32,000 nucleotides of DNA from Candidatus Saccharimonadota bacterium (GTDB lineage Bacteria; Patescibacteriota; Patescibacteriia; 2-12-FULL-60-25), in assembly GCA_016699205.1 (NCBI GenBank), contig CP064964.1, forward strand, positions 660,001 through 692,000, read 5' to 3'. Of the stretch, positions 1 to 24,377 are shown one piece after another. The notes under the pieces are model-generated. The model was not told the origin of the DNA, ran no database searches, and was given only the letters and a program-made list of their open reading frames with translations. The stretch's first letter is position 1. The number at the start of each line of letters is the position of its first letter. A program made the position numbers and the translations under genes.

Positions 1-2519
1 CAGGCCTCGTCAATTCCAATCTCATCCCAGCCGCTGATCTTGCGTTCTCGCTTGGAAACGCTACCAATCGCTGGAATGCGAATCTTGGGAACGTGACGAG
101 TACTTCGGTCACGACCACCAATCTCTTTGCGACCAATGCCTTCGTCGATACCCTCGGCGTCACCACCTTCAGCGCCTCTTCGGGCACGATCACGAACTTC
201 CTGTTTGCCAATGCCACGGGTACCAATCTCTTTGTCACGAACTTCAATGCCGGTACTGGATCGATCAACAATTTCACCAGCAACTCTTCGACGATTACGA
301 ACCTCTTCTCGCCCGCGGCCACGTTCACGTCTTCCTCGATCGTGAACCTCACCGCCACGACCGCGACCATCACGAACTTGGTCCTTGGTTCACCGCTCAA
401 TCTCACCAATATCACCTGGGTGAATGCGACGGGTACCAATACGACTTCAACGAATCTCTTTGCCACCACCTTCGGCTTCACGAATGCCACGGGCGACTCG
501 CTCACCTCGAACATCGCCACCATCAACACCCTCACCTCGGTGAATGGTTCGATTACGACGCTCACTTCCACTTCCGGCACCATCGCCACCTTCAACTTTG
601 AGAATGCCACCGGTTCCTCCCTCTACGCCTCTACGATCCAGGCGACGACGGTGTCTTCGACGGCCGTGTTCGTCAACGGCGTTGCGGTGTGTCTCGCTTC
701 CGGCACCAACTGCCCGACAGGAACCACGCCAAATCTCCAGACCGTCACGAATGCCGGCAATACGACGACGAATGCCATCCAGTTTGCGGGCGGTACTTCC
801 ACGGCCGACTTTGTCTTCAATACCTCGGCCACGGTCAACGGTATCTTCACGGCCAACGGTCAGAGCAATCTCCAGAACGTTCTGTTTACGAATGCGACGG
901 GCATCCTTGTTCGTCTCCTCCTTACGGCCACCAACGGCACCATCGATACCTTGGTCTCGACCAATGGCACGATCACTTCCTTGTCGGCAGTCTCCGTCAC
1001 GACCACGAACCTGCTCGCTGCCTCCACCACGGTCACGGGCACGCTCACGGCAAACAATGCGACGGCGACCACACTGCAAGCCAATATCGCCACCTTCGCT
1101 ACGGCCACTGTTTCAGGCCAGGCTATCTGTCTCTCCAATGGCGTTGGCTGTCCTTCGACTTCGGCTGAAGCCGACACCCTCGCCTCGGTGACGAACCGTG
1201 GAGCCTTTGCGACTTCAAGCGTCACCTTGTTTGGCGGCCTCACGGTTTCTGACCTCACGGCCACGGGTACCACTTCTCTCCAGAACACGACCATCAGCAA
1301 TGGCACAACCACCAACTTCGCGGTCACAGGCCTCGTCAATTCCAATCTCATCCCAGCCGCTGATCTTGCGTTCTCGCTTGGAAACGCTACCAATCGCTGG
1401 AATGCGAATCTTGGGAACGTGACGAGTACTTCGGTCACGACCACCAATCTCTTTGCGACCAATGCCTTCGTCGATACCCTTGGCGTCACCACCTTCAGCG
1501 CCTCTTCCGGCACGATCACGAACTTCCTGTTTGCCAATGCCACGGGTACCAATCTCTTTGTCACGAACTTCAATGCCGGTACTGGATCGATCAACAATTT
1601 CACCAGCAACTCTTCGACGATTACGAACCTCTTCTCGCCCGCGGCCACGTTCACGTCTTCCTCGATCGTGAACCTCACCGCCACGACCGCGACCATCACG
1701 AACTTGGTCCTTGGTTCACCGCTCAATCTCACCAATATCACCTGGGTGAATGCGACGGGTACCAATACGACTTCAACGAATCTCTTTGCCACCACCTTCG
1801 GCTTCACGAATGCCACGGGCGACTCGCTCACCTCGAACATCGCCACCATCAACACCCTCACCTCGGTGAATGGTTCGATTACGACGCTCACTTCCACTTC
1901 CGGCACCATCGCCACCTTCAACTTTGAGAATGCCACCGGTTCCTCCCTCTACGCCAACACGATCCAGGCGACGACGGTGTCTTCGACGGCCGTGTTCGTC
2001 AACGGCGTTGCTGTGTGTCTCGCTTCCGGCACCAACTGTCCGACAGGAACCACGCCAAATCTCCAGACCGTGACGAATGCCGGCAATACGACGACGCGTG
2101 CCATCCAGTTTGCTGGCGGTACTTCCACGGCGGACTTTGTCTTCAATACCTCGGCCACGGTCAACGGTATCTTCACGGCCAACGGTCAGAGCAATCTCCA
2201 GAACGTTCTGTTTACGAATGCGACGGGTCGTCCCTGTTCGTCTCCCTCCTTACGGCCACCAACGGCACCATCGATACCTTGGTCTCGACCAATGGCACGA
2301 TCACTTCCTTGTCGGCAGTCTCCGTCACGACCACGAACCTGCTCGCTGCCTCCACCACGGTCACGGGCACGCTCACGGCAAACAATGCGACGGCGACCAC
2401 ACTGCAAGCCAATATCGCCACCTTCGCTACGGCCACTGTTTCAGGCCAGGCTATCTGTCTCTCCAATGGCGTTGGCTGTCCTTCGACTTCGGCTGAAGCC
2501 GACACCCTCGCCTCGGTGA
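1..2519 (+). CDS. Gene 1 (giant repetitive secreted fibre/adhesin-like protein), ORF fragment 1 of 6; the 5' end lies upstream of the window
   Basis: Frame 0 is open from nt 3. Nt 3-92 translate to GLVNSNLIPAADLAFSLGNATNRWNANLGN, the peptide that precedes VTSTSVTTTNLF in every later repeat unit, so the GTG at 93 in the track is not a real start. After about 2228 the frame-0 translation becomes Pro/Arg/Ser-rich nonsense (GRPCSSPSLRPP...). The family sequence (GSSLFVSLLTATNGTIDTL...) continues in frame 2. Confidence 0.85.
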   Translation, partial: GLVNSNLIPAADLAFSLGNATNRWNANLGNVTSTSVTTTNLFATNAFVDTLGVTTFSASSGTITNFLFANATGTNLFVTNFNAGTGSINNFTSNSSTITNLFSPAATFTSSSIVNLTATTATITNLVLGSPLNLTNITWVNATGTNTTSTNLFATTFGFTNATGDSLTSNIATINTLTSVNGSITTLTSTSGTIATFNFENATGSSLYASTIQATTVSSTAVFVNGVAVCLASGTNCPTGTTPNLQTVTNAGNTTTNAIQFAGGTSTADFVFNTSATVNGIFTANGQSNLQNVLFTNATGILVRLLLTATNGTIDTLVSTNGTITSLSAVSVTTTNLLAASTTVTGTLTANNATATTLQANIATFATATVSGQAICLSNGVGCPSTSAEADTLASVTNRGAFATSSVTLFGGLTVSDLTATGTTSLQNTTISNGTTTNFAVTGLVNSNLIPAADLAFSLGNATNRWNANLGNVTSTSVTTTNLFATNAFVDTLGVTTFSASSGTITNFLFANATGTNLFVTNFNAGTGSINNFTSNSSTITNLFSPAATFTSSSIVNLTATTATITNLVLGSPLNLTNITWVNATGTNTTSTNLFATTFGFTNATGDSLTSNIATINTLTSVNGSITTLTSTSGTIATFNFENATGSSLYANTIQATTVSSTAVFVNGVAVCLASGTNCPTGTTPNLQTVTNAGNTTTRAIQFAGGTSTADFVFNTSATVNGIFTANGQSNLQNVLFTNATGRPCSSPSLRPPTAPSIPWSRPMARSLPCRQSPSRPRTCSLPPPRSRARSRQTMRRRPHCKPISPPSLRPLFQARLSVSPMALAVLRLRLKPTPSPR

Positions 2520-4525
2520 CGAACCGTGGAGCCTTTGCGACTTCAAGCGTCACCTTGTTTGGCGGCCTCACGGTTTCTGACCTCACGGCCACGGGTACCA
2601 CTTCTCTCCAGAACACGACCATCAGCAATGGCACAACCACCAACTTCGCGGTTACGGGTGCCGTCAATTCCAATCTCATCCCAGCCGCTGATCTTGCGTT
2701 CTCGCTTGGAAACGCCACCAATCGCTGGAATGCGAATCTTGGGAACGTGACTTCGACTTCGGTCACGACCACCAATCTCTTTGCGACCAATGCCTTCGTC
2801 GATACCCTTGGCGTCACCACCTTCAGCGCCTCTTCCGGCACGATCACGAACTTCCTGTTTGCCAATGCCACGGGTACCAATCTCTTTGTCACGAACTTCA
2901 ATGCCGGTACTGGATCGATCAACAATTTCACCAGCAACTCTTCGACGATTACGAACCTCTTCTCGCCCGCGGCCACGTTCACGTCTTCCTCGATCGTGAA
3001 CCTCACCGCCACGACCGCGACCATCACGAACTTGGTCCTTGGTTCACCGCTCAATCTCACCAATATCACCTGGGTGAATGCGACGGGTACCAATACGACT
3101 TCAACGAATCTCTTTGCCACCACCTTCGGCTTCACGAATGCCACGGGCGACTCGCTCACCTCGAACATCGCCACCATCAACACCCTCACCTCGGTGAATG
3201 GTTCGATTACGACGCTCACTTCCACTTCCGGCACCATCGCCACCTTCAACTTTGAGAATGCCACCGGTTCCTCCCTCTACGCCAACACGATCCAGGCGAC
3301 GACGGTGTCTTCGACGGCCGTGTTCGTCAACGGCGTTGCTGTGTGTCTCGCTTCCGGCACCAACTGTCCGACAGGAACCACGCCAAATCTCCAGACCGTC
3401 ACGAATGCCGGCAATACGACGACGCGTGCCATCCAGTTTGCTGGCGGTACTTCCACGGCCGACTTTGTCTTCAATACCTCGGCCACGGTCAACGGTATCT
3501 TCACGGCCAACGGTCAGAGCAATCTCCAGAACGTTCTGTTTACGAATGCGACGGGCAATTCCTTGTTCGTCTCCCTCCTTACGGCCACCAACGGCACCAT
3601 CGATACCTTGGTCTCGACCAATGGCACGATCACTTCCTTGTCGGCAGTCTCCGTCACGACCACGAACCTGCTCGCTGCCTCCACCACGGTCACGGGCACG
3701 CTCACGGCAAACAATGCGACGGCGACCACACTGCAAGCCAATATCGCCACCTTCGCTACGGCCACTGTTTCAGGCCAGGCTATCTGTCTCTCCAATGGCG
3801 TTGGCTGTCCTTCGACTTCGGCTGAAGCCGACACCCTCGCCTCGGTGACGAACCGTGGAGCCTTTGCGACTTCAAGCGTCACCTTGTTTGGCGGCCTCAC
3901 GGTTTCTGACCTCACGGCCACGGGTACCACTTCTCTCCAGAACACGACCATCAGCAATGGCACCACGACCAACTTTGCCGTCACAGGCCTCGTCAATTCC
4001 AATCTCATCCCAGCCGCTGATCTTGCGTTCTCGCTTGGAAACGCTACCAATCGCTGGAATGCGAATCTTGGGAACGTGACGAGTACTTCGGTCACGACCA
4101 CCAATCTCTTTGCGACCAATGCCTTCGTCGATACCCTCGGCGTCACCACCTTCAGCGCCTCTTCGGGCACGATCACGAACTTCCTGTTTGCCAATGCCAC
4201 GGGTACCAATCTCTTTGTCACGAACTTCAATGCCGGTACTGGATCGATCAACAATTTCACCAGCAACTCTTCGACGATTACGAACCTCTTCTCGCCCGCG
4301 GCCACGTTCACGTCTTCCTCGATCGTGAACCTCACCGCCACGACCGCGACCATCACGAACTTGGTCCTTGGTTCACCGCTCAATCTCACCAATATCACCT
4401 GGGTGAATGCGACGGGTACCAATACGACTTCAACGAATCTCTTTGCCACCACCTTCGGCTTCACGAATGCCACGGGCGACTCGCTCACCTCGAACATCGC
4501 CACCATCAACACCTCACCTCGGTGA
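2015..4525 (+). CDS. Gene 1, ORF fragment 2 of 6 (meaningful coding about 2228-4513)
   Basis: Frame 2. The first 71 or so aa of the track ORF (MSRFRHQLSDRNH...) are out-of-frame shadow. From SSLFVSLLTATNG onward the translation matches the repeat-unit peptide. The ORF ends ...SNIATINTSPR-stop because one C is missing: the other units read acaccctcacc, whereas 4509-4518 reads acacctcacc. Confidence 0.85.
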   Translation: MSRFRHQLSDRNHAKSPDRDECRQYDDACHPVCWRYFHGGLCLQYLGHGQRYLHGQRSEQSPERSVYECDGSSLFVSLLTATNGTIDTLVSTNGTITSLSAVSVTTTNLLAASTTVTGTLTANNATATTLQANIATFATATVSGQAICLSNGVGCPSTSAEADTLASVTNRGAFATSSVTLFGGLTVSDLTATGTTSLQNTTISNGTTTNFAVTGAVNSNLIPAADLAFSLGNATNRWNANLGNVTSTSVTTTNLFATNAFVDTLGVTTFSASSGTITNFLFANATGTNLFVTNFNAGTGSINNFTSNSSTITNLFSPAATFTSSSIVNLTATTATITNLVLGSPLNLTNITWVNATGTNTTSTNLFATTFGFTNATGDSLTSNIATINTLTSVNGSITTLTSTSGTIATFNFENATGSSLYANTIQATTVSSTAVFVNGVAVCLASGTNCPTGTTPNLQTVTNAGNTTTRAIQFAGGTSTADFVFNTSATVNGIFTANGQSNLQNVLFTNATGNSLFVSLLTATNGTIDTLVSTNGTITSLSAVSVTTTNLLAASTTVTGTLTANNATATTLQANIATFATATVSGQAICLSNGVGCPSTSAEADTLASVTNRGAFATSSVTLFGGLTVSDLTATGTTSLQNTTISNGTTTNFAVTGLVNSNLIPAADLAFSLGNATNRWNANLGNVTSTSVTTTNLFATNAFVDTLGVTTFSASSGTITNFLFANATGTNLFVTNFNAGTGSINNFTSNSSTITNLFSPAATFTSSSIVNLTATTATITNLVLGSPLNLTNITWVNATGTNTTSTNLFATTFGFTNATGDSLTSNIATINTSPR

Positions 4526-12885: not shown

Positions 12886-13472
12886 GCCAGCTTACCGGAC
12901 CTACTTGCGAAGATTGTATTGTTTCAGGCCGTTATCTTTATAGCGTAGATACAAACTCCTTTGACATTGTTGACATAACAAATGCAACGGCTCCTCGAAG
13001 AGTATTCTCAACTACCACTTCGAACGGTGAGAAAGTGAGAGTCCAGGGTAGCTATGCCTATGCGATTCTGGGTGGAAATAGTGTCCGCGTTTTTGATGTA
13101 ACAAACGCTACCAGCCCGATACAGATTGCTTCCATTGCCCTTACTTCGCCGTCAGCATTGGCTGTTTCGGGGCGGTTCCTCTATGTAAATAACAGTACCG
13201 CTGTTCGTGTGTACGATATCGCTGATCCGAATAATCCGACATTATTGGGCTCAGTTGCTATCGGCAATACTCCGGGCGAGATTGATGTAGCAGGAAAATA
13301 TCTTTATATAACGCATAATGATTTGTCTGTAGTTGATGTTTCGAGTTCGACGAATCCACGCATCGTGATTCAGGATTTATCGCTCGGTAGTAACGGTATC
13401 GATGTGTATGGCCGCTATGGTGTCGTTGGTATTAGTGGAGGTATTCAAATAATTGATTTTGGAGGTCTTGAA
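12640..13472 (+). other. LVIVD-type 7-blade propeller 2 (gene 1; spans the frame break at 12879)
   Basis: Blades: VSGRYAYVN, VVGDYLYTG, VSGRYLYSV, VQGSYAYAI, VSGRFLYVN, VAGKYLYIT, VYGRYGVVG. Each is followed by x-[IV]-x-D-[IV]-[ST]-N/D-x-x-x-P. Confidence 0.75.
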
Positions 13473-14099: not shown

Positions 14100-14470
14100 C
14101 CCAACCATCCATCAGCATCATTGCCGGTGATTTTACATCCGGTCTTGCCGGTGACGTGAATATCCTGGCTGGCAACGGTCTTGGCGGAAACCCGGCTGGA
14201 AATATCTACCTCACGCCAGGCGACTCCTTGGACAGCCGGGACATCTCTATCTCAATGCTGCAGGCACTTCCAATCAACCGCAATTCCGCTTTGAATCCAT
14301 CGGTGGAGGCATGGTGAGCTTAGAGGCTCCGAATACCGCTAACACCGAGAGCTTTGTCCTTCCATTTGCGGATGGAGCTTCTTCTACTGTCATTGGTACC
14401 AATGGCACTGGAATTCTTACCTTTGTCTCTGTTTGTTTGACGGATGGTACCAACTGTCCGGCTTCTTCTG
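13749..14470 (+). repeat. Dispersed direct repeat, copy C (partial; corresponds to A 7375-8096), carrying two of the frame-breaking 1-nt losses
   Basis: gacaccctccagtcggtcaccgcacgcggc...ccaactgtccggcttcttctggc is near-identical to copies A and B, apart from cc for ccc at 13870 and 14226 and a few substitutions. It diverges immediately after tcttctggc. Confidence 0.9.
13874..14317 (+). CDS. Gene 1, ORF fragment 5 of 6 (meaningful coding about 13871-14226)
   Basis: Frame 2. (L)LRDVYVGTSTYDVFLNSDFVLDGNDLFAADNIGSV...NIYLTPGDS is the same peptide encoded at 7497-7852 and 9549-9904. After 14226 it becomes DSRDISIS..., while GQPGHLYLNAAGTSNQPQFRF continues in frame 1. Confidence 0.8.
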   Translation: MRDVYVGTSTYDVFLNSDFVLDGNDLFAADNIGSVSSIFSNGMLVTGETGPTLFGDGFINQTDGALVISANSSFLTQPSISIIAGDFTSGLAGDVNILAGNGLGGNPAGNIYLTPGDSLDSRDISISMLQALPINRNSALNPSVEAW

Positions 14471-17400
14471 GCGGAGCCGACCTTAACTGGACCTTCAACC
14501 TCGCTGGAGACTTTGTGCGCAATGCGACCGGAACAACTGACATCGCCATTGGTTCTTCCACCCTCGGCAATGCTCCGTTTGTTTTCCTTAACAACACAAC
14601 CACTTCACGCTTCCTGATCGGCCAGAACTCCTCGACCGGAGCTGGAGCTGATCTCGTGATTGGAGCCACAACCTCAAGCGGCATGAATACGCTCTTCCAG
14701 CTCACTGGCGATGATCTCTTTGTGGCTGGCAATATCGGGTCTGCTTCCAGCGTGTATACCAATGGCGCGTTTATTGCTGGACCTGGATCTACGTACTATG
14801 GCAATGGTTACATCAACAAGAATGATGGATCGCTGAGGCTCTCAGCAAGCCTTGGCATTGTTGCTTCAAGTCGCCTTGATGCTCGATACCTAAATCGCTG
14901 GTTTCTTTCGCCGCTCTTGAAGACGGCTGTGAATGGCGGCAAGAGTGTTCGTGTTCCTGTCGGCAACTCTCCTACAAGCGCTGCTTTTGATGGCAGTCAT
15001 ATGTGGGTTGTGAATGCTGCTTCTAACAACGTTTCCAAGATTGATATTACGACCAATACCGTTGTTGCGACGACGACGGTTGGAACAAATCCTGTTGATA
15101 TTGCTTTTGACGGTACGTACATGTGGGTGGTCAACCAATCTTTTGGCAACGTTTCCAAGATTGATATTACGACCAATACCGTTGTTGCGACGACGACGGT
15201 TGGAACAGGTCCTAATGCTGTTGCCTTTGACGGAACACACATGTGGGTAGCTAACACAGGCTCTAACAACGTTTCCAAGATTGATATTACGACCAATACC
15301 GTTGTTGCGACGACGACGGTTGGAGCAGGTCCTAGCGGCATCGCGTTTGATGGCAGTCACATGTGGGTTGCGAATACTACTTCCGCTAATGCGAACAAGA
15401 TTGAGATCGTAAATAATACCGTTGTTGCGACGACGACGGTTGGAACAGGTGCTCTAGGCATCGCGTTTGATGGCAGTCACATGTGGGTTGCGAATCAAAC
15501 ACAAGATACCATCTCTAAAATTGATATCTCAACCAATACCGTTGTTGCGACGACGACCGGAGCGTCTCCTAATAGTCTCGCGTTTGATGGCACCCATATG
15601 TGGGTGACGAAGGGTATCGCAGCTGATGTTATAAAGATTGATGTTAATACCAACGCTGCTGTTGTCGTTACATCAACAGGTTCATTAGCTCCAAATGGCA
15701 TTGCGTTTGATGGCACCCATATGTGGGTGACGAACGGTGGTAACAATAATGTCATCAAGCTTCCTGTTGGTGGTGGGAATGGAGCGAATATGAACTTTGG
15801 CGTGAATCTTGTTCCTACGTCTAATGACACTTTTGATCTTGGTACGTCTGCGCTTGAATTTAGAAATGGTTTCTTTAGCGGAACCGTCTCTACGACCAAT
15901 GTTACCGTCGGAGGATTCAATGTTTGTCTCTCTAACGGTACCAACTGTCCTGCGTCTTCCGGCACCGAAACCCTCCAGTCGGTCACCGCACGCGGTAGCT
16001 TTACGACAACAACTGCCCAGTTCTTTGGAGGCTTTGTAGCTGCTTCATCGAGTGTGACCGGCACGTTGAATGTTGTTGGAAGTTTGAATGTCCTCGGCCG
16101 GTCGACGAATCGAGTGGTGTTTGAAACGCCTCTTGAACAGTACGTCACCGCAACAACAATGTTTACGACCATGTCGACATCAACGCTTGGAGACGATCCA
16201 AACAAGGTCATTGTTCAGGGTAACTATGCCTATATTCTTGCAAGCATCGGCACACCTCGTTTGTTGATCGCGGATGTGACCAATCCTTCTGTCGTTCAGA
16301 ATATTTCTACAACAACTTTGACTGGCGGTTCTAGCTGGGTAGATCTCGCGGTATCCGGTGACTATGCGTATACCGTTGACTATGCTGGAAACTTTAACGT
16401 CATTGATGTTTCGAACCGTAAAACTCCGCGACAGGTTTCTAACATTAATACGCTTTCAGGCCCGGGTGAGGTGGAAGTGGTCGGTAGCTATGCGTATATC
16501 ACTGAGTGGAATGGTGGGCGTATTGCCATCATTGATATTTCAAGCTCGACAAATCCCGTAATCGTCGGTCAGGGCCCAGCTGATATTTTTCCTTGGGGTA
16601 TCGAGATTCAAGGCAAGTATGCTTATACGATCGGTTACTATGCCTCTGAGCCATTTAGCATCTATGACGTATCAAGTTCTACGAATCCTGTTCGTCTTGC
16701 AAGCACGGCAGCTTTAAGCAATTTGGGCGGTAATGGCCAAGACCCGTTGCGAGTTCAGGGTCGATACGCTTATGTTGGCAGCTCTGCGTCCAATAATTTT
16801 TACGTGATTGATATCGTTAGCTCAACGAATCCGATCATTGTGTTCCAGGGTGCCGTTACGAGTACGGCCATCTCTAATTTCCGCGGCATGTCCGTGAACG
16901 GTGACTACGCCTATGTTTCAGAAGATGGTGCGGGAGAGATGCATGTCATTGACCTCTCCAATCCGCGCTACCCGCGTTATGCAAAGACACATGCATACGC
17001 TCCGCATACTTCTAACAAGGGCATCGATGTTGCGGGCCGCTATGCCTATGTCTTGCATGATGGATCTTCCGATGCCATGTCGGTTATCCGTATTGGCGGC
17101 ATGGAGACGAATGCCTTGCTTGCCCATAGCATGGAAGTTGGAACGTTGAATGTCCTTAGTACTGCTGACTTCCAGAACTTTGTCACGATTGGAACGGGTT
17201 TGTATGTCGGAAATTCTGGTATTCGCAGCGAAGGCGCTATCACGGTTGGTGGTGTAAAGGTCTGTCTTGAGGACGGAACAAATTGTCCTGGTGGTTCATC
17301 TGGTGGTTCTGACACGCTTCAGTCTGTTACCGCTCGCGGTTCGTTTACAACGACAACGGTTCAACTGTATGGCGGTTTCACAGCCTCTTCCGGTACGGTC

Positions 17401-20400
17401 ACGAGCACGCTCCAGGTTGGCGGACTTCTTACTTTCACGACGGCTTGGAGCCCATCGGGAACCATTGCTGTTGTCGGTAGCACGAGCACGCCGAGTGGTG
17501 CGTTTGAGGCTGTGATGCAGGGCAAGTATGTCTATACAACGACGAATAGTGCAACGAATGGTTTATATGTTACGGACGTATCCAATCCATATAAACCGCG
17601 CACCGTTGGCCATTTAAGTCTGTTTGATGATTCGAATGATTTTGATGTTTCTGGACGTTATGCCTATGTGGCTGATTCTGCGTCCAATATTTTGACTATT
17701 GATATCTCTAATCCGGCCCGACCGTTTGTTGCTGCAACGACAACGCTCTCTGCCGCTGCAATAACGGATATCGATGTTGTTGGCCCTTATCTCTATGAGC
17801 TTCAAGTCAGCTCCAACTTTCTCGATATCTATGACATCTCCAATCCGCTTGATATGCGATTGGTTGGCCGTGTCGACCATGGCTCGATTGGTGCGGATGA
17901 ACTGCGTGTTGTTGATGGCTATGCATATATCCATACGCAAGTAAATGGTATCGAGATCATTGATGTTAAGGATCCTTCGAAGCCAGTAATTGTCGATACG
18001 CTCGATTACACAGCGAATGCGTTCCGCGGCTTTGACGTATCTGGTGCTTACCTCTACGCACTCGCTAACGACACCTTGCATATTCTTGATATTTCTAACC
18101 CCACGAATGCCCGGGTAGTTTCAACCTCGACCGGTTTTAGCGCGTCCGGAAATGGCGCGGTGCGTATTGCAGGTAATACGCTTTACGTTGGAAATGACAA
18201 TAACTTCCACATCGTTGATGTCTCAAGTTCAACCAGACCGATTGTTCGAAACAGTGGGGCCGTGGGTACAGGTAGCGGTATCGTCTCGATCATTCCAAGC
18301 GGCCGCTTTGTCATCGTTCAGGCGGAAGAGCTCAATGTTGTCGATGTTGGTGGAATCGATGTGAGCGGAGCAAGGATTGGCGGAGCGTATATCGGCCAGG
18401 CGTATATCGCGGAGAACGTCACGGTTGGCCAGAACGCATCTATTCAAGGTGGTTTGAATGTAGGCATGAATGGCATCATGTCGCTTGGCGCGATTGGCGT
18501 GATGGCAACCAATACGACATCGACCTTCTGGGGCACGGTATCCACTACCCGTCTCTTTGTAAGCGGACGCGAGGTCTGTTTGGCTGACGGTACGAGCTGT
18601 TCATTCTCTGGCGGTTATGGAGCTGACGTAAACTGGATTTACAGTGCTTCTGGTGACTTCATGCGCACAACAACCGGCTCTACCGATGTCATCATTGGTA
18701 ACACCACTATTGCGACCGCTCCATTCCGCTTTGACGTTCAGACAACATCCAGTCGTCTCATTATCGGTCAGAATTCCAACGACCAAACCCGCGCCGACCT
18801 CGTGATCGGTGCCACGACTTCAAGCGGCATGAACACCGCGTTCCAGCTCACGGGTGATGATCTCTTTGTGGCTGGCAATATCGGTTCGGCATCGAGCGTG
18901 TATACCAATGGCGCCTTTATTGCAGGCAGCGGATCGACTTTGTATGGAGATGGATATATTGCCCGTACCACTGGCGACATCGTCGTGAGTGCTTCATCGA
19001 ATGTCTTTAGACCAAGTGCAAACAACACATTGAACCTCGGATCGGTCACAAGCTCATTCCGCAATATCTACGCGTCAGGAACTATTGCGTTTGGAACAGC
19101 AAGCGGATCGGCTCTCAACCTTGTTAACCCTGTCTTTACTCTTGCGACCAGCTCCAATTTCACCACGTTCCCGACCGGAGTCGCTGTCCGCAACAATATC
19201 GCCTATCTCGCCGACAGCAACTTTGTTGCACTCGACGTATCCAATCCTTCTAATCCGACCCTCATCTCAACCCTCGCTTCCGTGAATGCTAGCGACCTCA
19301 CGCTTGCCGGGGACTATGCCTATGTGGCTGCTGATGGTCTCAAGATTATCGACATTTCCCGACCGGGCCGTCCGGTTCAGGTCGGCTATTACGCTAACGG
19401 TCTCGGCAGCACCAAACCTGTTATCTCCGGCCAGTATGCCTATATGGGAGGCCAGGATTTCCAGATCGTTGATATCTCAAGTCCGACAGCTCCGACGTCT
19501 ACGGCGATTGTTACCCTTACAGGTTCTGTCGGAGGCGTTGATGTACAGGGCAAGTTTGCTTACGTTGCTAATGATACGACCTTCCGTATCTACGACATCA
19601 CGGACCCTTCCAATCCAACGGCAACTGGTACGCTCGGCGGCTTTAACAACCTTGGAACGGTGATCGTGTCTGGCCAATATGCCTACGTGGTTAATGATGG
19701 AGCCGATGTTGTTTCCATCGATATTTCGAACCCGGCTGCTCCGGTGTCACTCGATACCTATTCACCTGTCATTTCGCTTCAATTGAATGACATTACTCTT
19801 TCTGGCCGCTATCTCTACCTCTCCAAGCATGTTGATGGCATTGAAGTCCTTGATATTACTGATCCAAATGGCCTCATCAAGATCGCTGAATACAATACTC
19901 CGGGTGCCGCTTTTGGCATGATGATTTCTGGCAAGTACCTCTATGTGGCCGACTTTGGAAGCGGTCTCGCTATTCTTGATCTTGGTGGCGCCGATATCTC
20001 GAGTGCCAAGATCGGATCGCTTGAGATGGGCTCGGGTCAGGTTCTTAACAACCTCGATATCGGCGGACGTCTCAATGTGGCTGGAGGTATTCTTGCCGGT
20101 ATTGAAGGCGTGTTCTCACGAGGTCCGCTGGTTGGGTCATCGGTTATTGTGGGGGCGACAAGCTTTGCTACTTCGTCACGAACATCCCTTCTCGGCACGA
20201 CGGCTAACCTGTCCGTTCACAATGAGGTTGCCGTTATCTCACAAGGATTTGTTACTCCTGAGCTTCGCCTGTATGACGTTTCTCAACCTAAAAATCCGAC
20301 TTTGCTCTCATCAATTCTTGCCTCAACTGCAGGTAGTGAAGTGATTATCAAGGGAGATTATGTGTACGAAGTCGATACCACGATCCGAGCCATCGATGTT

Positions 20401-23400
20401 TCCAGTCCTTCGTATCCGGTTGTCGTTGCCTCAACTACCCTTTTAGCTCCTTATTCAGCATTCATCAGCGGACCTTACTTGTATGCCGCGCAAGATGCTG
20501 GTTTAGCCATCTTTGATATTTCAGATTCTCAATCTATCGAGTATCTCGATACGGCACCACTTCCGAACGTAGGACTTGTTGGCAGCAACCAGCGCAATGG
20601 TCTCTATGTCCGCGAACGCTTTGCCTATGTCACTGATATTGGTGCTGATAACTTCCACATTGTCGACATTCACGATCCGTATAATGCGACTTCCGTTGGT
20701 TATATCACTGGTTTTAGCAATCCGCAGGAAGTAGTTGTAAGCGAGGGCTATGCCTATGTGGTCGAGAGCTCGAGTAGTGAACTTAATGTAATTAATATTT
20801 CATCTTCTACCGGGCCGTTTATTGCTCGAACCATCTCTTCCGTGCAAGCTGGACCAACCGATCTTGCTTTGGCAGGTAACTATCTGTTTGTTGGAGGTTC
20901 GAGCGGCGTAACCGTCTTTGACGTTTCAAGCTCCACCAATCCACTTCAGGTCGCTACGGTACGCGCCGGAAGTGTTGTTGATCTTCAAATTGAAGGTAAG
21001 ACATTGCATGTTACGACGGCTAGCAACTATCTCATGTACGATATTCCGGGTCTTGTTGCCCCCGCCATGCTCGTCGGTTCCGTCCAGGCAGGCACAGGTT
21101 TGATTGAAAATGACTTCACGATCGGCAATCAGCTGTATGTCGGTGGAGGCATTCATGCCGGAGGCAGCATCATGGCACGCGGTTCCATCAGTGCCTCTGA
21201 TATCGATGTTTCCGGATTTGGTTCCGCAACAGCCGTACGTACCGTCCGTGTTGCCAGCCAATCAGTATATGCCGCCGGCGACTATGTCTATACGACGAAT
21301 GATGCGAGTACGCGCGTCCATCAGATTTCTATTGCCAACCCAGAGTTCGCAACCAATACGGCGGCTGGCGTGCTTTCCTCTGCAAGCGGACGCGACTTGT
21401 TTGTGGCTGGCGGCTATCTCTATGTCGCTCAAGGCACCAACGGCCTTGCGATCTTCAGTACGGAGAATGCTACCGGCGTTCTCAGACAGATCAGTACAAC
21501 CACCGGTCTTGGAACGGCTCATGAGGTATTTGTCTCCGGCCGCTATGCATATATTGCTGCGCTTGGTACGGGTGTGGAAGTGGTTGATGTCGGCAATCCG
21601 TATACTCCTGTCCTGAAGGAGACCTTTGATGGCAGCGGTACGAATTCCTCCCAAGGCGTTTATCTCCAGGACCGCTATCTCTATGTCGGTGATGGTGCTG
21701 ACGGTTTGCGTATTCTTGATGCCTCGGATCCGGTCGATCTCCGCCAGATCGGTATTCTTAATACGGCCGGTTCTGCAGAAAAGGTGTTCGTGTCAGAAGG
21801 CATCGCTTATGTCACGGATGATACCAACGGTCTTGTGATCGTCGATGTCTCCAACCCGGCAAGCCCTCGACTGCTCTCAACGGTTCCCCCGATTTCTAGT
21901 GGAAATATTTCCAATGTCACGAAAGCAGGTGACTATCTGTATGTGACATCGGATACGGGTTTGGGCAGCGTTGATAACTTCCGTGTCTTTGATGTTTCGA
22001 GTTCCACGCGTCCGGTTCTTGTGTGGGGCTTCAATGGTCCGGGGTCTCCGGCTGGGGTGGATGTGAAGGGACGCTATGCGTATGTCGGTGATGGCGAGCT
22101 CTTGCATGTGATCCGTTTACCGGGTGTTGACGCTCCTTCTGCGAATATCGGCTCTTTGTTTACGGGTCAATTGAATGTGGCCGAAGGTGCTGATATCGGC
22201 AGCTATCTCAATGTGAAGACGGGGCTCAGTGTCGGCAATGGCGGTATTCAGGTTCAGGGTCCTTCCACGATCACTGGTTCTTCCACGGATGCTATCCTCC
22301 GCGTTCGCAATGCCTACAACTCAAGTACCACGCCATATACGGCATGGGGTATCTTGGTTGATTCGATTGCTGTTTCACCTTCTTTCAACGTTCCTCCAGC
22401 TAACCGTGATTCTTGGTCGATGTATATCGATTATTCTTCTTCATCCAACCGTGGCGGTCTCTGTGTTGATGATGCAATCACTGGCGGCGGTTGTCCGATT
22501 TCCAACATTGGCGGCCGCTCGATCATGACGGATGCAGGTATCACGGCGAATGCCTTTGACTTGGCTGAGCGTTACTCGGTATCTGGTACGGCTGAAGGCG
22601 GAGATCTCCTTGTTCTTGAAACATCGACATCTACGATGGTTACGAAGCATTCGGGCACGATGTATGATCCGAAACTCATCGGTATCGTCTCCTTGAATCC
22701 TGGATTTGAACTCGGCTGGTTCAATCCTTCCAGTACCGATGTCGCTGTTGCCCTTACGGGCCGCGTTCCGACCAAGATCTCGATGAACAATGGTCCGGTT
22801 CAGATTGGCGATCCTCTTACGTCTTCCGATGTCCCTGGCTATGCCATGAAGGCGACGAAGCCGGGTATGATTATTGGTCACGCGCTTCAGAGCGCCTCTG
22901 CGACGGGTACGGCTGAGGTATTCGTTGCTGTCGGGTATTGGGCGGGATCCATCTTTAATACGGATGGTACGGTTGCTCTCCAGACCGATGACCTTACGAT
23001 CGATGCCGTGTCGATCGCTAGCTCAACTAATATCGCTGTTGATTCGTGGGGTCTCTCGTTCCGCGGTGCCGCATGGGATGAAGCTTCTTCAACGGTTGTC
23101 ACGAGCAGCTTTACCCTTTTGAACGATGTCATTACTGCTTCTAGCTCGATGTTCACGATTCAGAATACGAGTGGGACCTCGGTCTTCTCCATCGATGAGT
23201 TTGGTAAGGCGACGATTAACGGCGACCTCTCGATTGCCGGCAAGCTCTATCCTTCTGCCCGCGGCACGGTCCAGAGTGAGTACTACATCTTCTTGGATGA
23301 CATGCTTGGTCCGACATCGACCTACATGTCTACCAATGCTGATGGTTGGCAGTCGGAAGGTTCGTATGACTTGGCTGAACGTTATGTGTCTGAGCAGCCG

Positions 23401-24261
23401 CTGATTGAAGGTGAATTGGTGACGGTAAGCAGCGAGGGCGGACTCGCTATTGAGCGCGCTAGCGGCAACCAGAAGCCGTTCATGGGAATTGTCTCGACCA
23501 AGCCGGGCTTTGTTCTTGGCAAGCACTCGACGAGCACGTATCCGGTGGCGTTGGCTGGACGTGTTCCGACCAAGGTTTCGGATGCCAATGGTCCGATTGC
23601 TATCGGTGATCAGCTTACGGCTTCTGCTGACAATGCCGGTATCGCGGTTAAGGCTACGGGTGCCGGATATGTGGTCGGTATGGCTCTTGAGGCTTATCCG
23701 GGCGGCGACGATGACATGATCGAGGTGTTTGTACAGCCGGGTTGGACCAATGGTGATGGTTCAGTGATGCCGTCAGCTCCTTCATCGGGTGGCGGATCGA
23801 GCGCTCCGGCTGGAGTCACGACGGTTAAGCGCGGATTCGGTGATATCGCTGCCGGCGGAACTAAAGTGACCATCGAGTTTGATTCCATCGGTGCTTATCC
23901 GAATATCCAGGTAACGCAGTATGCCGGAGTTGAGGGCGGCTGGTATCTCAACAATGTGACGGACCATGGATTCGAGATCGTCTTGAATCAGGTTCAGTCC
24001 CATGATGTCCGCTTCGCCTGGAGAGTCGAGCCGACTCAAGCAGGGGAACAGGTCTACTATTCGGACAATACGCATGGCGCTATCGACTACCTGACCGGCA
24101 TTGGTCCGGGTACAGGAGTCGGGACCACGAGCTCGGATCCAGGTACTGATCCTGGGACCAGCTCGGGAACTGACCCGGGTACAGATCCAGGCTCCGGCAG
24201 CTCGACTGACCCCGGCACCGACCCAGGATCAGGCAGCTCAACAGACCCAGGCGCCCCTTAA
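14311..24261 (+). CDS. Gene 1, ORF fragment 6 of 6 (3316 aa in track; meaningful coding from about 14227): YVTN-like propeller, LVIVD propellers 3-7 and the C-terminal region
   Basis: Frame 1. The ATG at 14311 is the internal Met of ...ESIGGGMVSLEAPNTANTESF, which is also present at 7936 and 9988. The ORF is uninterrupted to the TAA at 24259-24261 and is followed by an intrinsic terminator. Confidence 0.9.
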   Translation: MVSLEAPNTANTESFVLPFADGASSTVIGTNGTGILTFVSVCLTDGTNCPASSGGADLNWTFNLAGDFVRNATGTTDIAIGSSTLGNAPFVFLNNTTTSRFLIGQNSSTGAGADLVIGATTSSGMNTLFQLTGDDLFVAGNIGSASSVYTNGAFIAGPGSTYYGNGYINKNDGSLRLSASLGIVASSRLDARYLNRWFLSPLLKTAVNGGKSVRVPVGNSPTSAAFDGSHMWVVNAASNNVSKIDITTNTVVATTTVGTNPVDIAFDGTYMWVVNQSFGNVSKIDITTNTVVATTTVGTGPNAVAFDGTHMWVANTGSNNVSKIDITTNTVVATTTVGAGPSGIAFDGSHMWVANTTSANANKIEIVNNTVVATTTVGTGALGIAFDGSHMWVANQTQDTISKIDISTNTVVATTTGASPNSLAFDGTHMWVTKGIAADVIKIDVNTNAAVVVTSTGSLAPNGIAFDGTHMWVTNGGNNNVIKLPVGGGNGANMNFGVNLVPTSNDTFDLGTSALEFRNGFFSGTVSTTNVTVGGFNVCLSNGTNCPASSGTETLQSVTARGSFTTTTAQFFGGFVAASSSVTGTLNVVGSLNVLGRSTNRVVFETPLEQYVTATTMFTTMSTSTLGDDPNKVIVQGNYAYILASIGTPRLLIADVTNPSVVQNISTTTLTGGSSWVDLAVSGDYAYTVDYAGNFNVIDVSNRKTPRQVSNINTLSGPGEVEVVGSYAYITEWNGGRIAIIDISSSTNPVIVGQGPADIFPWGIEIQGKYAYTIGYYASEPFSIYDVSSSTNPVRLASTAALSNLGGNGQDPLRVQGRYAYVGSSASNNFYVIDIVSSTNPIIVFQGAVTSTAISNFRGMSVNGDYAYVSEDGAGEMHVIDLSNPRYPRYAKTHAYAPHTSNKGIDVAGRYAYVLHDGSSDAMSVIRIGGMETNALLAHSMEVGTLNVLSTADFQNFVTIGTGLYVGNSGIRSEGAITVGGVKVCLEDGTNCPGGSSGGSDTLQSVTARGSFTTTTVQLYGGFTASSGTVTSTLQVGGLLTFTTAWSPSGTIAVVGSTSTPSGAFEAVMQGKYVYTTTNSATNGLYVTDVSNPYKPRTVGHLSLFDDSNDFDVSGRYAYVADSASNILTIDISNPARPFVAATTTLSAAAITDIDVVGPYLYELQVSSNFLDIYDISNPLDMRLVGRVDHGSIGADELRVVDGYAYIHTQVNGIEIIDVKDPSKPVIVDTLDYTANAFRGFDVSGAYLYALANDTLHILDISNPTNARVVSTSTGFSASGNGAVRIAGNTLYVGNDNNFHIVDVSSSTRPIVRNSGAVGTGSGIVSIIPSGRFVIVQAEELNVVDVGGIDVSGARIGGAYIGQAYIAENVTVGQNASIQGGLNVGMNGIMSLGAIGVMATNTTSTFWGTVSTTRLFVSGREVCLADGTSCSFSGGYGADVNWIYSASGDFMRTTTGSTDVIIGNTTIATAPFRFDVQTTSSRLIIGQNSNDQTRADLVIGATTSSGMNTAFQLTGDDLFVAGNIGSASSVYTNGAFIAGSGSTLYGDGYIARTTGDIVVSASSNVFRPSANNTLNLGSVTSSFRNIYASGTIAFGTASGSALNLVNPVFTLATSSNFTTFPTGVAVRNNIAYLADSNFVALDVSNPSNPTLISTLASVNASDLTLAGDYAYVAADGLKIIDISRPGRPVQVGYYANGLGSTKPVISGQYAYMGGQDFQIVDISSPTAPTSTAIVTLTGSVGGVDVQGKFAYVANDTTFRIYDITDPSNPTATGTLGGFNNLGTVIVSGQYAYVVNDGADVVSIDISNPAAPVSLDTYSPVISLQLNDITLSGRYLYLSKHVDGIEVLDITDPNGLIKIAEYNTPGAAFGMMISGKYLYVADFGSGLAILDLGGADISSAKIGSLEMGSGQVLNNLDIGGRLNVAGGILAGIEGVFSRGPLVGSSVIVGATSFATSSRTSLLGTTANLSVHNEVAVISQGFVTPELRLYDVSQPKNPTLLSSILASTAGSEVIIKGDYVYEVDTTIRAIDVSSPSYPVVVASTTLLAPYSAFISGPYLYAAQDAGLAIFDISDSQSIEYLDTAPLPNVGLVGSNQRNGLYVRERFAYVTDIGADNFHIVDIHDPYNATSVGYITGFSNPQEVVVSEGYAYVVESSSSELNVINISSSTGPFIARTISSVQAGPTDLALAGNYLFVGGSSGVTVFDVSSSTNPLQVATVRAGSVVDLQIEGKTLHVTTASNYLMYDIPGLVAPAMLVGSVQAGTGLIENDFTIGNQLYVGGGIHAGGSIMARGSISASDIDVSGFGSATAVRTVRVASQSVYAAGDYVYTTNDASTRVHQISIANPEFATNTAAGVLSSASGRDLFVAGGYLYVAQGTNGLAIFSTENATGVLRQISTTTGLGTAHEVFVSGRYAYIAALGTGVEVVDVGNPYTPVLKETFDGSGTNSSQGVYLQDRYLYVGDGADGLRILDASDPVDLRQIGILNTAGSAEKVFVSEGIAYVTDDTNGLVIVDVSNPASPRLLSTVPPISSGNISNVTKAGDYLYVTSDTGLGSVDNFRVFDVSSSTRPVLVWGFNGPGSPAGVDVKGRYAYVGDGELLHVIRLPGVDAPSANIGSLFTGQLNVAEGADIGSYLNVKTGLSVGNGGIQVQGPSTITGSSTDAILRVRNAYNSSTTPYTAWGILVDSIAVSPSFNVPPANRDSWSMYIDYSSSSNRGGLCVDDAITGGGCPISNIGGRSIMTDAGITANAFDLAERYSVSGTAEGGDLLVLETSTSTMVTKHSGTMYDPKLIGIVSLNPGFELGWFNPSSTDVAVALTGRVPTKISMNNGPVQIGDPLTSSDVPGYAMKATKPGMIIGHALQSASATGTAEVFVAVGYWAGSIFNTDGTVALQTDDLTIDAVSIASSTNIAVDSWGLSFRGAAWDEASSTVVTSSFTLLNDVITASSSMFTIQNTSGTSVFSIDEFGKATINGDLSIAGKLYPSARGTVQSEYYIFLDDMLGPTSTYMSTNADGWQSEGSYDLAERYVSEQPLIEGELVTVSSEGGLAIERASGNQKPFMGIVSTKPGFVLGKHSTSTYPVALAGRVPTKVSDANGPIAIGDQLTASADNAGIAVKATGAGYVVGMALEAYPGGDDDMIEVFVQPGWTNGDGSVMPSAPSSGGGSSAPAGVTTVKRGFGDIAAGGTKVTIEFDSIGAYPNIQVTQYAGVEGGWYLNNVTDHGFEIVLNQVQSHDVRFAWRVEPTQAGEQVYYSDNTHGAIDYLTGIGPGTGVGTTSSDPGTDPGTSSGTDPGTDPGSGSSTDPGTDPGSGSSTDPGAP
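14962..15778 (+). repeat. Seven tandem 120-nt (40-aa) units encoding a YVTN-like/NHL-like 7-blade beta-propeller
   Basis: The phasing is exactly 120 nt: atgtgggt recurs at 15001, 15121, 15241, 15361 and 15481. A 57-nt core (aacgtttccaagattgatattacgaccaataccgttgttgcgacgacgacggttgga) is exact in units 1-3. The peptide pattern G-x-x-P-x-x-[IVA]AFDG[ST][HY]MWV-x-N-x(4)-V-x-KID-x-x-TN-x-VV-x-TT resembles the 40-residue YVTN-family propeller repeat. That assignment is from memory of the family consensus and was not searched. Confidence 0.8.
16128..17106 (+). other. LVIVD-type 7-blade propeller 3 (gene 1; diverged paralogue of propeller 1)
   Basis: It begins PLEQYVTATTMFTTMSTSTLGDDPNKVIVQGNYAYIL and ends ...SVIRIGGME. 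It is colinear with propeller 1 blade by blade. Confidence 0.75.
17450..18360 (+). other. LVIVD-type 7-blade propeller 4 (gene 1)
   Basis: Blades: MQGKYVYTT, VSGRYAYVA, VVGPYLYEL, VVDGYAYIH, VSGAYLYAL, IAGNTLYVG, PSGRFVIVQ. Confidence 0.7.
19120..19995 (+). other. LVIVD-type 7-blade propeller 5 (gene 1); the identical copy in gene 2 is at 28921-29796
   Basis: Blades: VRNNIAYLA, LAGDYAYVA, ISGQYAYMG, VQGKFAYVA, VSGQYAYVV, LSGRYLYLS, ISGKYLYVA. Confidence 0.75.
20181..21057 (+). other. LVIVD-type 7-blade propeller 6 (gene 1), the variable cassette
   Basis: Blades: HNEVAVISQ, IKGDYVYEV, ISGPYLYAA, VRERFAYVT, VSEGYAYVV, LAGNYLFVG, IEGKTLHVT. It is bounded on both sides by sequence identical to gene 2. 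Confidence 0.75.
21235..22131 (+). other. LVIVD-type 7-blade propeller 7 (gene 1); the identical copy in gene 2 is at 31042-31938
   Basis: Blades: AAGDYVYTT, VAGGYLYVA, VSGRYAYIA, LQDRYLYVG, VSEGIAYVT, KAGDYLYVT, VKGRYAYVG. Confidence 0.75.
22558..22940 (+). other. C-terminal module DLAERY-1 (about 125 aa, unknown function)
   Basis: DLAERYSVSGTAEGGDLLVLE...KLIGIVSLNPGFELG...VALTGRVPTKISMNNGPVQIGDPLTSSDVPGYAMKATKPGMIIGHALQS...AEVFVAVGYW. It is colinear with the second copy at 23368-23750. Confidence 0.6.
23368..23750 (+). other. C-terminal module DLAERY-2 (a diverged duplicate of 22558-22940)
   Basis: DLAERYVSEQPLIEGELVTVS...PFMGIVSTKPGFVLG...VALAGRVPTKVSDANGPIAIGDQLTASADNAGIAVKATGAGYVVGMALEA...MIEVFVQPGWT. 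Confidence 0.6.
23820..24070 (+). other. Small C-terminal beta-rich domain, possibly H-type-lectin-like (weak call)
   Basis: VKRGFGDIAAGGTKVTIEFDSIGAYPNIQVTQYAGVEGGWYLNNVTDHGFEIVLNQVQSHDVRFAWRVE. The spacing 'V-x-[VI]-x-F...P-x-[VI]-x-V[TS]...N-V-T-x-x-G-F-x-I...F-x-W-x-[AV]' recalls my memory of the H-type lectin domain pattern. This is unverified. Confidence 0.3.
24121..24258 (+). repeat. Low-complexity (S/G)-TDPG microrepeat forming the extreme C-terminus of gene 1
   Basis: GTTSSDPGTDPGTSSGTDPGTDPGSGSSTDPGTDPGSGSSTDPGAP-stop. The 12-aa unit TDPGTDPGSGSS occurs twice in tandem. Confidence 0.85.
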
Positions 24262-24338
24262 ACCATAAATAGCTCTCTCATATATATAAGCATATGTAGT
24301 ACATCAATAATCCGGTCTTTCCCCAAAGACTTTTAATG

Positions 24339-24377
24339 AAAAGCCTGCCCCAAGACCACAGGGCAGGCTTTTTGCTT
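24339..24377 (+). terminator. Rho-independent terminator of gene 1
   Basis: There is a perfect GC-rich stem, gcctgccc (24343-24350) / gggcaggc (24361-24368), extended by A:T pairs (aaaa/tttt). The loop is 10 nt (caagaccaca), followed by a T-run (ttttt g ctt). It lies 78 nt after the TAA stop. A weaker hairpin, gtcttt-cccc-aaagac + tttt, lies just upstream at 24315-24334. Confidence 0.8.

Follow-up and report, generated by a model that had tools for sequence, protein, structure and literature searches.

The 32,000-nucleotide (nt) stretch of DNA analysed here (the window; positions 660,001 to 692,000 of contig CP064964.1) carries the 3'-terminal 24.26 kb of one gene, which is at least 27 kb when whole and is called gene 1 below. 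Gene 1 is probably a functional gene of Candidatus Uhrbacteria (Patescibacteria, or Candidate Phyla Radiation, CPR) of at least ~9,060 codons, encoding a Sec-exported giant modular fibre with C-terminal autochaperones. The proposed order of parts begins with a signal peptide and a conserved N-terminal domain, followed by at least 6.5 near-identical stalk units of 443 amino acids (aa) with C-x6-C junctions. A mixed region would come next, comprising uncharacterised modules, seven LVIVD propellers and one YNCE propeller. The protein would end in a C-terminal cassette of two tandem Peptidase_G2 intramolecular chaperone (IMC) domains, a small beta-sandwich and a low-complexity tail. Precedents exist for giant propeller-string proteins and for chaperone-assisted fibres; what is new is that one gene, of at least 9,000 codons and in a genome of ~1 Mb, unites the two. 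The sequences are public and are annotated as fragments or hypothetical proteins.

Gene 1 is on the plus strand, where six overlapping open stretches follow one another: 3-2519 (frame 3), 1928-4525 (frame 2), 4021-12885 (frame 1), 12861-14099 (frame 3), 13670-14317 (frame 2) and 14155-24261 (frame 1). As the frames run in the order 3, 2, 1, 3, 2, 1, every switch equals one missing base in the same direction. When one base is added at five sites, nt 3-24258 read as 8,087 codons with no internal stop, followed by a TAA stop codon at 24259-24261. An initial annotation, made from the window's letters, had proposed a single giant open reading frame (ORF) of about 8,085 codons once five 1-nt losses were bridged. 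The count made here agrees, and the bridged reading is gapless against intact external proteins as explained below. The gene and its irregularities are:

1..24261, plus strand: gene 1, the 3' part of a single gene, with its 5' end upstream of the window and five 1-nt bridges
2229..2230, plus strand: frame break 1 (FS1), GGTTCG read as GGTCG, seen against intact sister repeats in the window
4511..4512, plus strand: frame break 2 (FS2), ACACCCTC read as ACACCTC (CCCT to CCT), seen against intact sister repeats in the window
12875..12876, plus strand: frame break 3 (FS3), GATCCCTCGG read as GATCCTCGG in LVIVD propeller 2, placed from the blade pattern only, with no close sister copy
13869..13870, plus strand: frame break 4 (FS4), GCACCCTTTT read as GCACCTTTT (CCCT to CCT), seen against sister repeats, with CCC in contig L048
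14225..14226, plus strand: frame break 5 (FS5), GACTCCCTTGG read as GACTCCTTGG (CCCT to CCT), seen against sister repeats, with CCC in contig L048
903..916, plus strand: garbled patch in stalk copy 1, with three cancelling 1-base losses (AA to A, TT to T, CCC to CC)

The five breaks are most likely homopolymer-length miscalls in a long-read consensus and not biology. This reading is drawn from the nature of the losses, the lack of decay around them, the existence of intact external proteins, an unbroken gene on the related contig L048 and differences in base calls between two contigs. All five losses are in homopolymers of 2-3 bases, and CCCT has become CCT at four of the five. Stalk copy 4 is short of one C of a CCC (~nt 4511) and copy 2 of one T of a TT (~nt 2229), and in the repeat family 7322-8097, 9374-10149 and 13699-14472 the third copy is minus one C at 13869 and another at 14225. 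The sequence flanking the breaks is 96-100% identical to the sister copies, with no decay downstream of any break, and for FS3, putting back GATCCCTCGG yields the expected LVIVD blade. The bridged peptides align without gaps to intact external proteins: to P0231 at 94-96% (94% at FS1 and 96% at FS2) and to P0226 at 97.5-99%.

Further support came from two JGI contigs, L047 and L048, which derive from two samples. The gene of 7,099 aa on L048 (JGI contig Ga0558119_00028) is unbroken and ends where gene 1 ends, and at breaks 4 and 5 the L048 paralogue has CCC. The two contigs are identical to each other over 10 kb apart from three homopolymer-length calls (A2/A1, A4/A3 and CCCTC/CCTC), and they are enough by themselves to break up a 3,167-aa gene into four ORFs. 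CCCT/CCT appears to be a recurrent consensus-error context, perhaps one related to methylation. The garbled patch reads ILVRLLL where sister copies read NSLFVSLL. This patch and break 1 (2223-2235) share the most variable spot of the repeat, where two alleles occur (NSLFV/SSLFV), and this fits the mixing of reads from different copies during polishing.

Two other accounts of the breaks were considered. Programmed frameshifting or phase variation was rejected because the runs are of 2-3 bases only and no slippery heptamer is present at the sites. The 4-nt stop/start overlaps (4522-4525 and 12882-12885) were not accepted as gene boundaries but put down to coincidence, since the lost base is a few nucleotides upstream of each.

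The remainder of gene 1 was located through protein records. The 405-aa ORF at 12882-14096 is, out-of-frame tail included, 100% identical to GenBank QQR60428.1, which sits on the 1,082,254-bp contig of a Candidatus Uhrbacteria metagenome-assembled genome (MAG), where gene 1 is annotated in pieces. QQR60427.1 (IPH19_03360, 2,787 aa) probably equates with window ORF 4522-12885, judging by its length and its top rank in the stalk-unit search. QQR60425.1 (IPH19_03350, 926 aa) opens on an incomplete signal peptide, followed by a conserved N-terminal domain (MTFGIFGAQSASAAIPKVINYQSRL...) and a stalk unit that differs from every copy in the window, and it ends in the out-of-frame peptide that is seen in the window after break 1. 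From these four features it is identified as the N-terminal piece of gene 1, which agrees with the start upstream of the window that had been proposed, and it appears to be cut off from the rest by one more homopolymer loss.

The minimum size of gene 1 is then 530 + 443 + 8,087 = ~9,060 codons, a lower bound that assumes no extra copies between the pieces and takes the N-terminus from a protein record, not from DNA. The upstream DNA itself was sought by exact look-up of the window ORFs in a gene-position index, which gave no match, and with a 51-nt exact stalk-repeat pattern, which was absent from the metagenome contig collection searched; a scan of genome contigs gave only relatives at 52% identity or less. 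As 1.3-kb units at 96-100% identity stand in tandem within a 1.08-Mb contig, the assembly was presumably built from long reads. The IPH-type locus tags presumably belong to a Nanopore activated-sludge MAG study.

The C-terminal cassette comprises four elements:

22558..22950, plus strand: IMC-1, the first Peptidase_G2-like intramolecular chaperone/autocleavage domain, starting at DLAERY directly after F
23368..23760, plus strand: IMC-2, the second Peptidase_G2-like domain, starting at DLAERY directly after Y, with D and E invariant in 30 homologues
23827..24081, plus strand: small beta-sandwich, predicted local distance difference test (pLDDT) ~90
24085..24258, plus strand: Gly/Thr/Ser/Asp/Pro low-complexity tail, ending ...STDPGAP, without LPXTG and without a hydrophobic helix

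By profile comparison, the two tandem IMC domains are homologous to the autochaperone/autocleavage domain of phi29 gp12 (Peptidase_G2), a predicted relationship that is newly recognised here. Seven homologues that were scanned pass the cut-off of PF11962 (Peptidase_G2, IMC autoproteolytic cleavage) with 25.7-37.1 bits against 25, and their matching regions align to gene 1 residues ~7516-7650 and 7791-7920 with E values from 1e-9 to 1e-54. A domain profile was then used, consisting of 35 sequences with both window copies included. It matched 3gqh_A, the released C-terminal fragment of gp12, at E = 1.8e-6; full-length gp12 (6qz9_A, residues 689-744) at E = 1.8e-5; chaperone domain D4 of the tailspike Dpo31 at E = 1.6e-4; and premature gp12 (3suc_A) at E = 2.6e-4. 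The D, A and E of a D-x-A-E motif are invariant across the 35-sequence alignment, and across 30 homologues the D and E are at least 90% conserved in IMC-1, compared with their invariance in IMC-2. The D aligns with residue 1 of 3gqh_A (the fragment reads DFAEYFES) and with residue 692 of 6qz9_A. We take the D and E of the gp12 D-x-x-E motif to be catalytic, as in the phi29 literature.

The predicted structure is consistent with this assignment. The AlphaFold model of the C-terminus has a mean pLDDT of 71.6, with both IMC domains mostly at 80-94. In a Foldseek search of the PDB, 3suc was matched with a probability of 1.0 and E = 1e-2, and phage cement and head-fibre proteins also matched. In BFVD, viral "preneck appendage protein" models were matched at E = 1e-9 with template modelling (TM) scores of 0.62-0.69, and 72 viral proteins were matched at E <=1e-3. 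Virion proteins of PA5oct-like jumbo phages are ~35% identical. PF13884 (Peptidase_S74) has no match in the window and is found in a few relatives. H-type lectins (Helix pomatia agglutinin and SLL-2) were among the fold matches of the C-terminal model taken as a whole.

The initial annotation had seen no classical C-terminal anchor and left the mode of attachment unexplained. A sorting motif and a hydrophobic helix were sought again, and the C-terminus has no sortase/LPXTG, PEP-CTERM or transmembrane anchor. Instead, it is predicted to be a folding/assembly module and not an anchor, which would explain why an anchor is missing.

In phages, intramolecular chaperones fold a trimeric beta fibre and are then cut off, and the phi29 case has been described (PMC4690869). 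Gene 1 resembles phi29 gp12 (PF11962; PDB 3gqh, 3suc and 6qz9) in the profile homology (E = 1.8e-6) and beta fold of the domain, in the D-x-A-E at the domain start, which falls on the residue that opens the released gp12 fragment, and in where the domain sits, namely C-terminally in a long fibrous protein rich in beta structure. In contrast, the protein here is cellular, Sec-exported and more than 10 times larger, and it has two tandem copies ~140 aa apart that are followed by a beta-sandwich and a low-complexity tail. Cleavage, ATP-dependent release and trimerisation would be predictions for gene 1, whose likeness to gp12 is one of sequence and predicted fold. A comparable principle, in which a C-terminal domain makes a trimeric beta fibre fold and afterwards cuts itself off (PMC4690869), is seen in tail fibres and spikes with a Peptidase_S74 chaperone (K1F endosialidase, T5 pb1), and some gene 1 relatives carry PF13884. 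The S74 chaperones differ in fold and catalytic residues, and the window has no S74 match.

Upstream of the cassette are eight propellers:

10798..11715, plus strand: LVIVD propeller 1, 7 blade motifs
12643..13475, plus strand: LVIVD propeller 2, 7 blade motifs read from the translation, spanning frame break 3; a regular expression caught only part of it
14950..15822, plus strand: YNCE/YVTN-type propeller, 7 FDG[ST][HY]MWV blades with a 120-nt DNA period
16180..17112, plus strand: LVIVD propeller 3, seven blade motifs and a seven-blade alignment consensus, outside the Pfam scan
17485..18363, plus strand: LVIVD propeller 4, from Pfam and blade motifs
19135..20001, plus strand: LVIVD propeller 5, modelled with 28 strands in 7 blades at pLDDT >90
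20215..21080, plus strand: LVIVD propeller 6, from Pfam and blade motifs
21250..22137, plus strand: LVIVD propeller 7, from Pfam and blade motifs

In the Pfam scan, PF08309 (LVIVD; cut-off 20.2) gave 92-302 bits with four of the pieces, and these contain six of the seven LVIVD modules. The YNCE propeller, whose fold is predicted from sequence, scored 51.7 bits with PF21783 (YNCE; cut-off 27.1) over seven repeats. Seven blade motifs were counted in each propeller, either by regular expression or from the translation. Structure prediction took in one of the seven LVIVD propellers (no. 5). Here, the AlphaFold model of residues 6194-6770 has a pLDDT >90 at residues ~6380-6663 and contains 28 strands, that is, 7 blades of 4 with the closing strand included. 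Its best PDB matches are 7-bladed WD40 propellers, with TM scores of 0.68-0.71 and a root-mean-square deviation of 2.7-3.0.

Pfam, the blade motifs and the one model therefore uphold the seven LVIVD propellers and one YVTN-like propeller, each of seven blades, of the initial annotation, and the profile and structure searches of the modules support the propeller folds on which that annotation depended. The ~60-aa GG-x-[ED] linker that it placed after every propeller was found after five, and a variant follows two others. The Pfam scores far above the cut-offs and the 7-bladed modelled fold are features shared with propeller surface proteins of the LVIVD (PF08309) and YNCE/YVTN (PF21783) type; the difference is that here eight propellers are in one chain on a repetitive stalk.

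The stalk and the uncharacterised modules are as follows:

1..7340, plus strand: tandem stalk array, 1,329-nt (443-aa) unit in 5.5 copies at 96-100% identity
7351..8061, plus strand: module B, ~237 aa between two junctions, with further copies at 9403-10113 and 13728-14436
8518..9384, plus strand: module C, ~289 aa, with the end ...GTPEG..GDLAVD..LFVKT..GW
14455..14949, plus strand: F-N module, with ...DLNW... and ...TGDDLFVAGNIGSASSVYTNG..., and a second copy at 18598-19134

The stalk copies are spaced by 1326, 1328, 1329, 1328 and 1329 nt. Each 443-aa unit has two C-x6-C junctions, and at least one further copy is upstream of the window. The stalk is composed of 23.8% Thr and 12.5% Asn, with D+E at 2.0% and K+R at 0.7%, so that the Thr/Asn-rich character and near absence of acidic and basic residues described initially both hold; the repeat period, then given as ~11 residues, is ~10 as measured. 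Gene 1 contains 22 C-x6-C junctions with the consensus VCLxNGTNCP. Most continue as ..TLQxVTxRGxxTTxx.xFxGG, and a minority lead into a ..D.NW.. module. The junction profile (C-x6-C plus TLQxVTxRGxxTT..GG; for example, window 7330-7480) has no relative in the PDB. Four of 26 junction variants weakly match PHROG 9729, "tail fiber protein" (best E = 0.002).

None of Pfam, NCBIfam and PHROGs gave a match for the stalk unit, modules B and C, the F-N module or the N-terminal domains, nor was the C-terminus assigned to a family in these scans. A motif, ..G[ST]PEG.v.A..GS[IL][YF]...g......[YL].K......GW.., ends several modules (window 9200-9384, which is the end of module C; P0131; P0226). We take this module-closing motif (..G[ST]PEG..GW..) to be like the C-terminal domains of actinophage minor tail proteins, for which the tools gave no match. 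A glycosylation reading was dropped because N-x-S/T sequons are not enriched over composition (188 observed versus 173 ± 11 expected).

In the window, the stalk repeats (1-7000, both strands) have a guanine-plus-cytosine (GC) content of 0.57 and a GC skew of ~-0.25, compared with 0.50 and a skew near 0 elsewhere. This composition accounts for long, stop-free antisense ORFs of up to 516 aa. The antisense ORFs have no family match in Pfam and the Rfam search of the window found no RNA family, in keeping with the claim that this 32-kb window holds two genes only.

Gene 1 belongs to a family with intact members. The last 690 aa have 133 relatives in a collection of 5.8 billion proteins, whose named sources are mostly Candidatus Uhrbacteria or other Patescibacteria. 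When genome contigs were scanned with the C-terminus, 46 loci were found, mostly with Patescibacteria-group titles and some labelled as other taxa, with ORFs of ~1,000 to >3,900 aa. The stalk unit has few relatives, 97 representatives out of 1.84 billion, and among them are intact proteins of 4,272-6,814 aa. Intact relatives with the same layout are P0135 (5,119 aa), P0131 (6,814 aa) and P0231 (7,602 aa), the last of which is in the same 90% cluster as the N-terminal piece. P0131 and P0231 run in the order signal peptide, ..INYQ.RL.. N-terminal domain, stalk with junctions, propellers and C-terminal cassette. Their cassette has two D-[LF]-A-E domains ~270 aa apart, after which come the beta-sandwich and the low-complexity tail. 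Stalk units number five in P0231 and at least 6.5 in gene 1.

Several points weigh against gene 1 being a single functional fibre gene of the size given, and they are best taken together with the explanations that would compete with it. The breaks were judged from consensus sequences, and the frameshifts might be real. Gene 1 would then be a recently inactivated pseudogene, or a series of shorter genes as annotated in GenBank, and five breaks within 24 kb with at least one more upstream, the pieces standing as separate proteins in GenBank and the oddity under random error of three cancelling losses in 14 nt would all be in line with this. We regard it as quite improbable, as the changes are only homopolymer contractions, four of them in the CCCT context, the bridged frame is free of stops and other decay, and a ~99% identical strain holds an intact 7,099-aa gene. 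In addition, a like break is a proven assembly difference between two otherwise identical contigs, the ends of the annotated pieces are out-of-frame garbage, and the garbled patch and break 1 are at the variable spot of the repeat, where mis-mapped reads are expected in polishing. The initial annotation had pointed to fixed frameshifts in a dead gene as the alternative to its reading, and the evidence favours artefactual breaks. The stalk copy number could also be mis-assembled, given a 1.3-kb repeat at 96-100% identity and a gene of 7,099 aa in the closest strain. Size and architecture would in that case be partly an artefact, with tandem copies over-counted or paralogues joined via segments of 95-99% identity. 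The near-identical repeats, the 1.3-1.4-kb segments in common with gene 2, the ~2,000 aa by which the gene of the closest strain is shorter and the clustering of consensus errors at variable positions of the repeat all leave room for this. It is nonetheless unlikely, since the contig is 1.08 Mb long, diagnostic substitutions distinguish the copies in a consistent order, and P0231, which was assembled independently, shows five units in tandem within the same overall layout from end to end. Moreover, L048 is colinear with the window from the end of gene 1 through the spacer and gene 2, and its gene list goes on to a counterpart of the third gene.

Other points concern what the protein does. The window's own IMC domains have no match to PF11962 at E up to 0.1, so that the homology is transitive or at the level of profiles; the phage chaperone is single and terminal, whereas here two copies are followed by ~170 more residues; and a related fold is also present in cement proteins that do not cleave. 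Monomeric globular propellers along a presumed trimeric shaft would be unusual, the AlphaFold model of the F-N module copy at 18598-19134 with its linker is of low confidence, and trimerisation, cleavage, N-terminal anchoring and ligand are all things that we only infer. An intact gene could therefore encode a monomeric surface adhesin or an S-layer-like beta-solenoid, in which the G2-like domains are non-catalytic and of the cement/beta-tulip type. The same fold in non-cleaving phage cement and head-fibre proteins (6qyy), a weak match of IMC-2 alone to Phage_cement_2, the duplicated and non-terminal position of the IMC domains and the monomeric nature of propellers are all compatible with such a protein. 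We consider it doubtful, while giving it real weight, as the D-x-A-E is invariant and aligned on the gp12 cleavage site, the best matches by sequence are not cement proteins but the chaperone domains of gp12 and Dpo31, and some relatives carry a Peptidase_S74 chaperone domain, perhaps in place of the G2 type. Finally, the phage-type chaperone domains, the weak PHROG matches and the likeness to jumbo-phage virion proteins might suggest a prophage or tailocin region with gene 1 as a phage tail fibre. This we find barely credible. The locus downstream in L048 is cellular and without phage structural or packaging genes, family members (gene 2, P0131 and P0231) have Sec-type signal peptides, the viral contigs searched contain no close relatives, most of the 46 genome loci have titles of the Patescibacteria type with some labelled as other taxa, and 9,000 aa is far larger than known tail fibres.

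The favoured reading, that of a functional gene for an exported giant fibre, leads to the following model. Export is predicted from the signal peptides of gene 2 and other family members and from the incomplete signal peptide of QQR60425.1. Once the protein is exported, the chaperone domains at its C-terminus would start the folding of the beta-rich fibre, probably into a trimer, and would then probably be cleaved before the invariant D-x-A-E, which would put the cuts in front of D7520 and D7791 in the numbering of the 8,087-aa repaired reading. The N-terminal end may be held at the cell, and the propellers may serve as ligand-binding heads for attachment to a host cell, a prey cell or matrix. 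The fibre would be diversified by variation in repeat copy number and by module exchange among tandem paralogues. A role in host or prey attachment is a conjecture.

More broadly, and tentatively, Uhrbacteria and those Patescibacteria that share the cassette might build their cell-contact apparatus from cell-encoded giant trimeric fibres, which are folded by a duplicated autochaperone of the phage-tailspike type and diversified by exchange of propellers and other modules and by stalk-repeat number. If true, these cells would recognise hosts by a system related to phage receptor-binding proteins, ~tenfold larger and occupying ~4% of a 1-Mb genome. How the ultra-small CPR/Patescibacteria find and hold their hosts is largely obscure, hence the interest of giant surface genes.

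Related giants and fibres are known elsewhere. The mosaic adhesive trimer fibres of Bdellovibrio (Bd2439; PDB 8ol4 and 8onf), which we take to be mosaic and trimeric, are a possible analogy, as fibres of a bacterium that attaches to bacteria. The likeness is one of low-probability fold matches (~0.2), and the size classes are far apart. The giant genes of Omnitrophota and the propeller-string proteins of Oscillospiraceae (bioRxiv 10.1101/2023.11.21.568195) appear, from the parts of that preprint consulted, to be alike in being extracellular, >7,000 aa and encoded by very long genes, and in having repeated beta modules that include 7-bladed propellers, for which cell contact was proposed. They differ in phylum, stalk and domain set (LVIVD and YNCE here, RCC1 there). 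In the same parts of the preprint, CPR bacteria figure only under predation, and a phage-type C-terminal chaperone is not mentioned. A literature search gave nothing on Peptidase_G2, on CPR proteins of the LVIVD type or on Patescibacteria with intramolecular chaperones.

Reading one gene of at least 27 kb in place of a string of hypothetical proteins corrects the public annotation, and the phage-type autochaperone provides a first testable handle on the folding and maturation of such a protein. The locus is also a concrete case of long-read homopolymer errors hiding giant genes, documented by CCCT/CCT at four of the five breaks and in an independent pair of assemblies. Near-identical modules across paralogues and a variable stalk copy number suggest a mechanism of diversification that is traceable in time-series metagenomes.

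Downstream of gene 1 are a spacer and a second giant gene:

24332..24380, plus strand: hairpin between an A-run and a T-run, intrinsic-terminator-like, after gene 1; -22.6 kcal/mol, z = -4.7
24389..24417, plus strand: promoter-like site, TTAACA and TATACT separated by 17 nt, within the AT-rich spacer ahead of gene 2; matched to the consensus only
24556..32000, plus strand: gene 2, a paralogue running off the window; ATG at 24556, signal peptide MPRSLRPFLIAFTLLLGGLFLSSSAVLA followed by AP, open stretch from 24490

Gene 2 shares two segments with gene 1, both without indels: 18763-20184 with 28564-29985 (1.4 kb, 99.2% identity) and 20873-22193 with 30680-32000 (1.3 kb, 95.5% identity). As the genes are different elsewhere, this suggests recent module exchange or gene conversion between tandem paralogues. 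L048 is 98.9% identical to window 24236-32000 over 7.8 kb, with no indel. It contains three giant genes in tandem, of 7,099, 3,167 and 2,492 aa, and the 3,167-aa gene is the orthologue of gene 2. IPH19_03385 and IPH19_03390 appear to correspond to the third of these, and the locus tags suggest that three tandem paralogues are present here too. With sizes estimated from the related strain, the 1.08-Mb genome appears to devote ~44 kb to three tandem giant surface genes.

Downstream of the giant genes, L048 17561-27479 encodes a TPR protein (823 aa), two AHSA1 proteins, an HTH regulator, a LysM + M23 peptidase, a ComM-like Mg-chelatase ATPase, signal peptidase II (LspA) and a DksA-type zinc finger; no phage genes and no dedicated secretion or glycosylation genes were seen in this region. 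The hairpin at 24332-24380 was missed by a simple terminator scan because its loop is ~10 nt and the limit of the scan was 8, and it could serve as a two-way terminator.

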